Of a stretch of 64,000 bases of DNA, positions 33,701 to 39,700 are shown in pieces. The stretch comes from Escherichia coli O127:H6 str. E2348/69 (GTDB lineage Bacteria; Pseudomonadota; Gammaproteobacteria; Enterobacterales; Enterobacteriaceae): the NCBI RefSeq assembly GCF_000026545.1, contig NC_011601.1; one strand, 5' to 3'. Numbering within the stretch: the first letter of the stretch is position 1; every line of letters starts with the position of its first letter. The position numbers were made by a program.

Positions 33701-36700
33701 GAAGGCGACCGACTGCATTCACGTAAATTACGAACCTTTAATGAGCCGCCGTTCCGATAATAAGTTATGAACCTTCTTATCAGAAATAGATGTGAAGGAT
33801 TAAGTAAGACATCTGGCAAATAGCCTGCAATAAACGCGGGCTGTTTGCTTCCTTGGGCAGATGCGAGTTTTATTATCGTCTTAATGATTTCCACATATTA
33901 AAAGCAAGTATGCTTTCAAAACACAATTATAAAAAATCCCGCCAACAACATTAGTTTTTATAAAATTAAATATAAGATTATGGCTTTAGAATATTTTTAT
34001 TTCTAATAGACGAGATTTTTCCTGTTATGATATAATATGCTGAATTAACACATGTTAACGATTTACCAGTAATGTAAATAAATTTTCGAGGAGATCATTC
34101 CAGTGGGACGTAAATGGGCCAATATTGTTGCTAAAAAAACGGCTAAAGACGGTGCAACGTCTAAAATTTATGCAAAATTCGGTGTAGAAATCTATGCTGC
34201 TGCCAAACAAGGTGAACCCGATCCAGAATTAAACACATCTTTAAAATTCGTTATTGAACGTGCAAAGCAGGCACAAGTTCCAAAGCACGTTATTGATAAA
34301 GCAATTGATAAAGCCAAAGGCGGCGGAGATGAAACGTTCGTACAGGGACGTTATGAAGGCTTTGGTCCTAATGGCTCAATGATTATTGCTGAGACATTGA
34401 CTTCAAATGTTAACCGTACGATTGCTAACGTTCGCACAATTTTCAATAAAAAAGGCGGCAATATCGGAGCGGCAGGTTCTGTCAGCTATATGTTTGACAA
34501 TACGGGTGTGATTGTATTTAAAGGAACAGACCCTGACCATATTTTTGAAATTTTACTTGAAGCTGAAGTTGATGTTCGTGATGTGACTGAAGAAGAAGGT
34601 AACATTGTTATTTATACTGAACCTACTGACCTTCATAAAGGAATCGCGGCGCTAAAAGCAGCTGGAATCACTGAGTTCTCAACAACAGAATTAGAAATGA
34701 TTGCTCAATCTGAAGTTGAGCTTTCCCCAGAAGATTTAGAAATCTTTGAAGGGCTTGTTGATGCCCTTGAAGATGACGACGATGTACAAAAAGTTTATCA
34801 TAACGTCGCAAATCTCTAATTATATTTTAAAGAAATCTGTCTTTATGGCAGATTTCTTTAATCTCATATAATTCTTATAAAAATATAATATCCAACTCGT
34901 CATCTTGATTATAAAATCCACGCTCCCAGAGAAATAATATTTATTAAAATTCCAGGCCTTCTTTTTCTGATTACCGAAGACAAAGTGGCAATTACGTATA
35001 GTTTCCCGATAAAGACGTGACAGCAACATCCCACATAAGGCATTTTTCTCTTTATCTTTGTACGGTACTTCACGGAACGAAGTTTTTGACCTTGCGAATC
35101 GTGATGTCTGTTGGGGGGCAATTTGCTCACTGAAGCGTGAGACTCGATTAAACGAACGAAACACAGAAATCAAAAAACCCGGTCACTTTTTTTTACAAAG
35201 TGACCGGGTAAAAATAATTTTTATTTTTTAACTGCCTTGAGACTCATAAAGATGTCTCAAAACTAAAATTTGGCTCCTCTGACTGGACTCGAACTTCATC
35301 TGTATCTCCTGCTGTTAGGGGCTTTCAAAAAATGGCGTCTGTTTTTACCATCATATTTACCAGCATTTTTAATGCTATATCACCATAAAGTCAATTACTA
35401 TCAATTAGTTATGACAACACGCTTCACTAAATCTCACTGAACGATCTCCCTGTTCTGCTACAAATCTTCAATCGCTGATTCAACAGATTAACGCTATTAC
35501 CCGATATGTTTACCTCCGGAAAGATAACGAAAGACAGAAGAACACTCTATGACCAATGCTGAGACCGCCAGTTATCATTATTCTCTTTCTCTATGCTGCC
35601 GGATGCGTTAACGTCAATGTAATGAATATCAACATTTTTAGGGAAAAGAATGACAAAAAGAATGCATGTCGCAGAGATAGTGGAAGCACTAAGCAAATGG
35701 TTTGATGTTAGTCGCTATGATGCGTTGAAAGACCTCACTCTGGAACAAATTTATTCAGAACTGGAAAGGCGCATGTTTGTCTATAAAGCCAGACAGCAAT
35801 GGGAAACACTGGACGATAAGCATCGTAATGCCGTTATTCACCATGATGCGATGATCCACTCTGGCAGGGTCTTGCTGGAGGATAAATGGATCTCTGAGAG
35901 CCACATGCTGGCTCATAGCTATGCTGTCAGGCCAATGACAAGGAATTCACTGTTTAACTATGGACGGGCAATGTATCGGCTGGAGAATACGCCTCCAGAA
36001 GAAAATGTTTCAGTGAGTTCGGATTACATATCTGAATACCTGAAACAGGGAGGGCTGAATCCTGCGAACAAGATGCTGATTGAAATTGACTTGGAGGAAG
36101 CCAGCAGTGACGATCTGGCTGAACACCTGAAAGTGCTTATCAGTCAGTGGCAAAAGCACCTGAAAGTGCCTAAACCACCGGAAAAAGATTTCCGGTTTGG
36201 TCATAAAACATTCCAGAAGATACTCGATTACAAGATTATCCCTCTGATGGACCTCATCGCTTGGGAACAGCTCAACAACCAGAAAATCAAATACCCTGTA
36301 TTGGCTGGTATCCTACACCCCGATATGCGTTATGCCAGAGGTAGCGAGCAAATCAAAGACACTGATTATCCGCTTGCCCACGGTTTTTTAAGCAATGACA
36401 ATTATTTCAAGTCACTGAATGATTTTTTCATAAAAAACAATCTGGTGAAAAACTCGCCTATTCTTGATGTCATCGCAATGAATGACAAACCAGAAACAAA
36501 AAAGAAAACAAGGGACATCCACTAACACTGAACTTCCCCTGTATTCATTTCTTATAAACATCCCCTGAATTCACTGGTCCTGAACATCCCTCCGGTTCAG
36601 GGCTGGTGAACCAACCTAGTTTTTCACAAGCGATCTCCCTACAATTATCTCCATCGAATAACACAGGAGATAAATACGGTTAAAAGAGAAATAAAAGCAA

Positions 36701-39700
36701 AGACAACGTTTATCCGTTTACCAGAAGTAATAAAACGCACCGGATTTGGAAAAACGTGGATTTACGAACTGATTAAAGCCGGACGGTTTCCATCGCAGGT
36801 GAAAACAGGGATAAGAGCGGTGGCATTCATTGAAAGTGAGATTGATGAATGGATTGACGCGACTATTCGAAACTCACGCCAGAACGCTGCATAAAAAAAG
36901 AAACAAGATCTCGTGTCGAACAGATAACTATTCGCACAGGGCATCTTATTACCCTAAACAATAATGGAGAGAAATATGAAGATAGAACTTATTACGACAA
37001 AACAGTTTATTGAACAAGCCGAATATTATTTCAGGAGCTATATGGACGGATTGCGAAGGAATGCACCAGATGATTTTTATTATTTTATCAACAATAAATA
37101 CAATATGAATGACATCATGGAAAGTATCATTAAAAAAACGAGATATCATTTTTACGATGACTCAGAAGAAGGTAAAAGGAATCGGATTTATGGAGAAGTA
37201 AGCCACAGTAAGGTAAAGCAACACCTTCGTCAGCTTTGGATTATCTATAAGTGTGTATACCGCTAATACTACAGCATTTCATTTTTAATATTAACCAAAA
37301 GGAAAAGCCAATGAATACATTTAAAAATAAAAACACTGAAATCTTTTATATTGTGTCCTTGCATATCTACGCGGAGCTTTTTAACTCAAAGGATAAAACA
37401 ACAAGTAATATGATTATAACGCATGTAATGGATCATGAGTTTGTCTGTAAGCTAATCGATTTGGCGATGAGAAATGCTGAGAAGCATCTTCTGAAAAAAG
37501 CATGGAAAAAGAACGCTGCTGAAAAACTGTCTGAGGTGGATTTTAAAGGGGTTAAGCAGGCATTAGCTAAAATGCATTATACGGTTCTGGCGGAATCAAT
37601 ATGTTGATATGTTCTGGTGTCTATCGGCCCCTTCTTGGGGCTGAAAACAAATCTTATTAGTCTATCCAAGGAGCAAAAAAATGATTGATGAATTTCATGT
37701 GATGTATATGTATAAAAAAATCCAAGCAGAAGCCGCAACCACTGACCTCAAAACACTTGAACAGCTTTTAAAAAAGTTCAGGAGCGTGGTTAACGAACGT
37801 CGGGAAGAATACTATCAGGAGATTGGTGATAAAAAAGCGCGTAAGTTGAAAATGAAAAGAGCACAAAGATTACTTGAGAAAATGGCATGTGACCGGGTTT
37901 CGCCAGAAGATCTCATTGACTGATAAGTGTTCTGTATAATAACGTATCTATATCAAAAACATGGAGGTGGTTATGGGCTGGGAGCTTCACATAGTAAGAA
38001 CGGAACATTGGTTCGATAGCGCAAGTGTTCCAATCAGTAGTGAAGAATGGCTCCAGCTTGTTAATGATGATAAAGAACTCTCCATAGATAACAAGAATGG
38101 TGATTTTTTTGCTCTATGGAGTGGTCAAAGTGAACTCGATGAACCTTGTTCATCATCGACGGATAAAAAACAATCTTTGTGGGTAAGGTTGATTTCAAAA
38201 GTAAAAAAATTTTAAGAAGCTTAGCCTCATAGAATTGATCTTCTATTTTTCTGTGTTTGATTAGCTCAGATTTAAGTATTAAAGCCTTTCTAATGACTAA
38301 ATCTGACCGTGGTTATTATCTAGCATGACCTGATCCTAAAATATACATATAAACGACATAACTCATCTCTGGACAGAAACTGCTTAGAATAATAGATCTA
38401 AAAATTTCTGCCAAATTAGGAAAAATAAGCTAAAGCCTTAGATATTTATTTTATCTGTCTTTTCGCTAGTGCAAGTACATGTTCTACACTATTGATTAAT
38501 AGTGCTTGATGAGATGCAAATTGAATATCAAGTGGTGGTTTTAGAGCATTGTATGAGCCAAAATCTTCTTTATTTGCAGTAACGAATATTATTTTTTCAT
38601 TAAAACCTGCCTTCCTTAGTTCTTGACAGAAGTCTAAAAAGCATTCAACAATTTCACAATCTTTTGGCTCAAGTTTTCCTTTCCTTGCTGGTGCTTCAAG
38701 TTTTCGAACTCTTTGCATTGCTTTCAGCGTATGATCATTAGTCCTTTCAATACACTGACAAGATTTTAGAAAATGTTCTGATAAGGACTTTATTTTACTA
38801 GATATATTGAGGCCTGAAAATTTCGGTGGCATAGAATAATTTGTATTTAAGACTAAGTTGGTCACGTTAATTGTCGAACTTATACTACGATCTAGTTTTT
38901 TTATTTCTTTATCCATAGTGGAAAGAACAGCATCAATATTATCAATCCACTCCTCGTTAACGTTTTGGCAGGAAACTAACCAACAAGACGTACCGTTAAT
39001 TTTGATAAGTTCAAGCATGTTGTTTGCATAAGAGTCTGACAATCCATGTAAATGGATAGAATTTAATATATCTAATATTGAACACGTATCAAAGAAGAAT
39101 ACTGGTTGTTCATCTTTCAACAATTCATCTTTAACTTTGCTTATTGATAATACGCTGTCCGTTTTCTTTTGATATGAGCTTAGCCGTGTTTACCGGGGAT
39201 TCCAGACCCTTTAATTTGAATGTGGCTACGGCACTGTTGCGACTTCTGTAATATAATGCTTGTTTCTTATCTCCAATATAGCATTCAAGATAAGAGAAAA
39301 TCTTAAACTCCTGAATGCCAAATGTTTCCTCAAGCATGGTCATCTGCTCAGCCAATATATTTAGTATATCACTCTTGGATAGTTTTTCGTGGAGCTTAAT
39401 CTCAAGCGAACCGGGTAGTTTTTTCATTGTTATTTCCTTGTTGTTGTTATTTTATCAGGATACTTTCTGCATATGAGAGTCTGCGTCAACAGAGTTCCTC
39501 CTTGCTTCCTCGTTTTCCTTTGTTCTTTTATATACTTTTCGTGGTTTATCAATATGTATGCTGTTATTGGGATTAGGAACAGCGTTATTCTTTTTCTTCT
39601 TACTGAAAACAAATGCGTCAGTATAGATTTCTTTGGTCTCAGTTTCTAAGGATAGGGTTCTTCTTTCACTTTTTGACATAGCTGAATAACTTTCTGGATA

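Follow-up and report, generated by a model that had tools for sequence, protein, structure and literature searches.

The locus examined here raises the question of whether a gene that is complete in every respect but its first codon is still expressed, and what its loss would mean for the mobility of the island that carries it. It lies in a 64,000-nucleotide stretch of contig NC_011601.1 (assembly GCF_000026545.1) of the enteropathogenic Escherichia coli O127:H6 str. E2348/69, which we call the window and to which all positions refer unless stated otherwise. The gene belongs to IE3, an island integrated at the tRNA-Asn gene asnW, and encodes a recombination directionality factor (RDF) of the type of SEN1998, found in island ROD21 of Salmonella Enteritidis. 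Where its homologues start with ATG, the copy in E2348/69 has ACG. This substitution in the IE3 RDF gene is already known: Piña-Iturbe et al. 2022 reported that it disrupts the coding sequence (CDS) and noted that IE3 is nevertheless excision-proficient (PMC8844411). Comparison of alleles indicates that ATG is ancestral and that ACG arose from it by a single T>C transition, and the RDF gene is probably silenced or nearly so. The features at the start of the gene are as follows.

36665..36669, + strand: Shine-Dalgarno (SD) motif AGGAG of the RDF gene, 6 nt before the mutated start, conserved in relatives
36676..36678, + strand: mutated initiation codon ACG; 136 other E. coli genomes, and Salmonella, have ATG here
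36676..36894, + strand: open reading frame (ORF) of the SEN1998-type RDF, AlpA/excisionase winged-helix family
36670..36894, + strand: RefSeq/PGAP CDS WP_029694594.1, 74 aa, starting at ATA with an SD spacing of zero

The start region (36660-36681, +) reads AACACAGGAGATAAATACGGTT, in which AGGAG is followed by the 6-nt spacer ATAAAT and then by ACG. The frame is open between a TGA at 36607-36609 and a TAA at 36892-36894 and, read from ACG, comprises 72 codons plus the stop, intact except for the start codon. An initial annotation, made from the sequence alone, had described a complete AlpA-type helix-turn-helix (HTH) frame whose only codon at proper spacing from AGGAG is ACG, with no ATG, GTG or TTG upstream in frame, and on each of these points it was right. 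Neither the codon listing nor the six-frame ORF list contained an in-frame ATG, GTG or TTG between 36610 and 36798; the first in-frame canonical start is the GTG at 36799, which would yield a 31-aa product without the helix-turn-helix. Another canonical start, upstream or downstream, was thus ruled out, since the earliest one available loses the HTH. The same annotation had stated that the ORF was missing from the gene track. This holds for the track supplied with that reading but not for RefSeq/PGAP, which has the 74-aa CDS. In PGAP the mutated gene appears as a normal 'helix-turn-helix transcriptional regulator' of 74 aa, a label that hides the loss of the canonical start. A promoter and terminator scan of 35200-37100 gave the same counts as shuffled sequences, and the 150-nt gap that precedes the RDF ORF contained nothing resembling a promoter.

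The 72-residue translation from 36676 matched the Pfam family Phage_AlpA (PF05930) with an E-value of 1e-17 and 64.2 bits (gathering cutoff 21), as well as HTH_17 (3e-07, 31 bits against a cutoff of 27). Because of these two matches, we regard the ORF as a real coding frame rather than a chance one. The protein was also assigned to PHROG 66 and 2790, 'excisionase and transcriptional regulator' (4e-10), and gave a weak match of 19.3 bits to the NCBIfam excisionase model TIGR01764, under its 28.8-bit cutoff. The closest solved chains were an AlpA-family protein (8c3t) and then the excisionase TorI (1z4h). It is small and basic, with 72 aa and a computed isoelectric point (pI) of 10.2, and the residues F24, Y30, P39 and R47 are all present. 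Two traits of RDFs and excisionases were considered at the level of the gene: its surroundings are those of an integrative element, in which a tyrosine integrase gene and attachment (att) repeats are present, but it lacks a canonical start at the conserved N-terminus, having ACG at 36676 where homologues have Met. As judged from its sequence, the protein is a small winged-helix member of the AlpA/Xis/TorI class and the orthologue of SEN1998.

The polarity of the change was established with a 40-mer centred on the start codon, used as query with a 28-base megablast seed that was forced to span the site. Among 5,426 complete E. coli genomes, the ACG version was found in only three, all of them re-sequencings of E2348/69, while the ATG version was found at 100% identity in 136; the full-length RDF gene is present in 139 genomes of this set. 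The closest ATG allele is that of E. coli KBN10P04869, whose island is 97.8% identical; there, an unchanged SD is followed at the corresponding position by ATG. Otherwise, the two ORFs differ only by two synonymous changes and, because of this near identity, the allele comparison places the start-codon change as a recent event. In an island of Salmonella enterica, ATG stands behind an identical SD and spacer. Of the 94 homologues retrieved by a protein search, most have a length of exactly 72 aa. When 23 homologues from Escherichia, Salmonella, Dickeya, Pectobacterium, Yersinia, Klebsiella, Photorhabdus and other genera were aligned, the initiating Met stood opposite the Thr (ACG) codon of E2348/69, with the sole exception of a truncated variant (P0008). 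The initial annotation had interpreted ACG as a point mutation of the start codon and had suggested that homologues would reveal whether ATG is ancestral; both the KBN10P04869 island and the wider set of E. coli and Salmonella alleles agree with it. Nor do the homologues use a downstream canonical start, being 72 aa long and beginning at this codon.

ACG is identical in the three separately deposited complete assemblies of E2348/69 and also occurs in the drafts GCA_900448265.1, GCA_000249055.2 and GCA_000183005.2, which match the window over 35169-38125 except for a single-base indel. From 38125 onwards, the drafts with ACG (loci L005, L007 and L008) diverge into an IS3-type transposase gene that is absent from E2348/69. 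The index has the 74-aa PGAP product of the ACG allele in 54 blocks of contigs, and ATG>ACG was independently reported from FM180568 (PMC8844411). An artefact of sequencing or assembly, or a mutation confined to a single laboratory stock, was rejected as an explanation of ACG and has a negligible chance of being true, since the independent assemblies all have ACG, among them at least three drafts that differ from the complete genomes by the insertion sequence (IS) at 38125; nothing was found that speaks for it. On the assembly comparison, ACG is common to E2348/69 and close relatives, which are structurally distinct strains of one lineage.

What the lost protein would do can be gauged from SEN1998, which was compared here through its published residue numbering and pI, while the amino acid identity of about 97% refers to other Salmonella proteins of the same 90%-identity cluster. 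Both SEN1998 and the IE3 protein have 72 aa and a pI of 10.2, and all 16 of the residues named for SEN1998 (T11, I13, L15, T22, F24, K26, Y30, K34, P39, V42, T44, R47, A48, I52, E53 and R68) occur at the same numbers in the IE3 protein when counting starts at the ACG codon. Both genes lie near the distal att site of an asn-tRNA island, within the same neighbourhood of DUF6387, RDF, two hypothetical genes and H-NST, a gene order that is also kept in other E. coli islands. They differ in that the IE3 copy starts with ACG instead of ATG, so that its protein is probably not made. SEN1998 has the features of a winged-helix RDF, and electrophoretic mobility shift assays showed that it binds both attachment regions of ROD21 (PMC8844411). 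Its contribution to excision is slight: ROD21 was excised in 4.4–6.6% of cells without SEN1998 and in 4.8–7.7% with it, and RDF mRNA levels were negatively correlated with excision (PMC8844411). For the IE3 protein, att binding and promotion of excision are taken by analogy from this orthologue.

Similarity to other members of the class needs to be read with some care. The type member of PF05930, AlpA of the E. coli K-12 prophage CP4-57, shares the Pfam family and fold class of the IE3 protein; both are small winged-helix proteins whose genes lie on P4-like integrative elements. AlpA raises the transcription of its integrase gene. In contrast, neither deletion nor overexpression of SEN1998 altered the mRNA of the ROD21 integrase SEN1970 (PMC8844411), which speaks against action in the manner of AlpA but leaves family membership untouched. 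The term 'AlpA-like regulator' or 'activator' is a family label and not a demonstrated mode of action. The winged-helix RDFs TorI (KplE1 prophage), Hef (Yersinia high-pathogenicity island, HPI) and VefA (Vibrio VSP-II) offer a second comparison. The Phe, Tyr, Pro and Arg residues important for excision in TorI are conserved at positions 24, 30, 39 and 47 of the IE3 protein, to which TorI 1z4h is the second-best solved-structure match. However, identity is low, at 19.7–38.7% across the nine RDFs and regulators compared (PMC8844411), and SEN1998 contributes much less to excision than is usual for such RDFs.

We propose that, in the E2348/69 lineage, the T>C transition has removed the start codon from an IE3 RDF gene that is otherwise intact and that translation would have fallen to about 1% or less of its ancestral level, a reduction of some two to three orders of magnitude, though perhaps not to zero. 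In intact islands, the RDF would bind attL and attR and modestly bias the asnW-adjacent tyrosine integrase toward excision. The integrase alone would support low-level excision of IE3, given that islands of this family can do without the RDF. With this same ACG allele, IE3 does excise in E2348/69: nested PCR detected the event, and the sequences of the attB and attP junctions agreed with prediction (PMC6035254). Since IE3 with ACG excises and deletion of SEN1998 lowers ROD21 excision only slightly, loss of the gene does not stop excision. The initial annotation had seen a mutation that silences the excision activator of the island. The silencing probably stands; the protein, however, is better described as an att-binding RDF than as an activator of the integrase, and the island is still excised. 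Complementation in trans by a close paralogue found no candidate by tblastn in the window, and a blastn search at 'distant' sensitivity placed the RDF gene at a single location in E2348/69; this negative result is for close paralogues, not for distant AlpA-family proteins elsewhere in the genome.

We consider it highly probable that the ACG allele is a start-codon pseudogene produced by ordinary decay rather than an adaptive switch. That the loss was neutral and not selected is what we infer, because IE3 also contains a relaxase gene interrupted by a stop codon and a fragment of an integrase gene, and because an independent nonsense allele of the RDF gene exists elsewhere. The latter was observed in GCA_053107575.1 (L009:1447-1665, corresponding to window 36676-36894), where codon 17 has changed from GAA to TAA; in PGAP, the 54 residues that remain are annotated as a protein starting at an internal ATA. 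This independent knock-out suggests that RDF loss is recurrent in ROD21-like islands of E. coli.

There are considerations that weigh against this interpretation. The role of the RDF is carried over from the Salmonella orthologue, for which only a small effect on excision was measured and different studies disagree about overexpression. In addition, an ACG behind a strong, well-spaced SD initiates detectably in E. coli, so that 'silenced' may in fact mean 'strongly turned down'. In measurements of all 64 codons in E. coli, ACG belonged to a class initiating at about 0.1–1% of AUG, non-canonical codons as a whole ranged from 0.01 to 3% of AUG, and ACG-started sfGFP was recovered with an N-terminal Met (bioRxiv 10.1101/063800). 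The gene might therefore still be alive, with the ACG that stands 6 nt after AGGAG acting as a weak start and supplying either a trickle of RDF that is sufficient or a down-tuned level that is advantageous. The ideal SD and spacing, the intact ORF with its key residues and the continued excision of IE3 are all compatible with this view, as is the negative correlation between RDF mRNA and excision in ROD21, which means that low RDF need not mean low excision. We nevertheless hold it to be unlikely. ACG is derived and limited to one clone while other homologues retain ATG, the dispensability of the RDF in ROD21 means that residual protein is not needed to explain the excision of IE3, and the nonsense allele together with the decayed relaxase and integrase genes fits plain decay. 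The more specific proposal that ACG is a selected, down-tuned start, with the trickle of RDF stabilizing the H-NST-carrying island in the EPEC1 clone and rare excision being kept, seems to us less likely again and is best treated as speculative.

A different way of keeping the gene alive would be to accept the PGAP start, in which case a 74-aa protein would be normally expressed from the ATA at 36670, a rare but legal start in translation table 11. This reading has the PGAP CDS call (36670-36894) in its favour, and AUA does initiate at about 1–2% of AUG in E. coli, or 0.02–3% across constructs (bioRxiv 10.1101/063800). On the other hand, this ATA begins at the base immediately after the end of the SD, with a spacing of zero. 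Such a lack of spacing is unfavourable for initiation. The same ATA is also present in all the ATG-bearing relatives, where annotation starts at ATG, and the rescue of the GCA_053107575.1 nonsense allele from an internal ATA points to a habit of the pipeline. With zero SD spacing and the same codon ignored in ATG alleles, we judged the ATA start implausible, with very little probability left to it; it is probably an annotation device and not a real start. A start-codon pseudogene that arose by neutral decay thus remains the reading that we prefer for the ACG allele.

IE3 is bounded by exact 25-bp direct repeats, TTGGCTCCTCTGACTGGACTCGAAC, that lie 25,816 bp apart, and the RDF ORF is found 1.4 kb inside the distal end of this 25.8-kb element. 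Its main landmarks are listed below.

35270..35294, + strand: distal att direct repeat of IE3, identical over 25 bp to the tRNA-Asn 3' end
61061..61085, + strand: proximal att direct repeat, within the 3' end of asnW
61062..61137, - strand: tRNA-Asn (asnW), the integration site of IE3
59614..60882, - strand: tyrosine integrase adjoining asnW, annotated as intact; presumed partner of the RDF
35650..36525, + strand: DUF6387 gene directly upstream of the RDF gene
37681..37923, + strand: H-NST, an 80-aa truncated H-NS antagonist and known IE3 cargo (PMC3897749, PMC7074111)

IE3, with a published size of 25,819 bp (PMC6035254), is a member of the Enterobacteriaceae-associated ROD21-like (EARL) excisable islands (PMC6035254, PMC7074111). 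The window agrees with this assignment in its integration at the 3' end of an Asn-tRNA gene with flanking direct repeats (25,816 bp against the published 25,819) and in its combination of a SEN1998-type RDF with an H-NS-family gene, in the same gene order and with H-NST of 80 aa. The order DUF6387, RDF, two hypothetical genes, H-NST is that seen in the Salmonella island.

RepL is also encoded in IE3. The MobQ relaxase gene (48132-49601, -) is a pseudogene interrupted by a stop codon, and near it the genes for TraD, a type-4 pilin and PilV have been kept; the transfer functions of IE3 appear to have decayed. Two integrases are intact and one is a fragment with an internal stop (55933-57514, -, and 59614-60882, -); the second integrase is of the serU-island type according to the literature. 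The presence of two integrases and a fragment hints at a composite or nested element. At 57716-59547 (+), a DUF262 protein strongly matched the PADLOC models NsnA (5.6e-83) and PD-T4-2_A (9e-44) and is followed by a HEPN-domain protein; from these matches, the two genes look like an anti-phage defence pair located between the two integrase genes of IE3.

Two observations concern neighbouring elements. In KBN10P04869 (L002:1-3400), the related island directly adjoins the integrase and ybtS of the yersiniabactin HPI, suggesting a tandem of two islands at a single asn-tRNA site. In the window, a tRNA-Ser(CGA) gene (27005-27094, -) and asnT (28086-28161, +) lie upstream of a degraded yeeJ (invasin) pseudogene.

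The ACG allele provides a natural example of a start-codon pseudogene within an otherwise intact island excision factor, although it carries little weight beyond bookkeeping. In this respect, it flags a RefSeq annotation, the 74-aa CDS from ATA, that masks a pseudogene, and it offers a lineage marker for E2348/69 and closely related assemblies. For the island family, it lends support to the published conclusion that ROD21-like islands do not need SEN1998-type RDFs in order to excise. The contribution of the RDF to the stability of IE3 would bear in turn on the retention of the H-NS antagonist H-NST. If the ACG were, after all, a selected start, it would represent a natural case in which the stability of a mobile element is tuned through its start codon.

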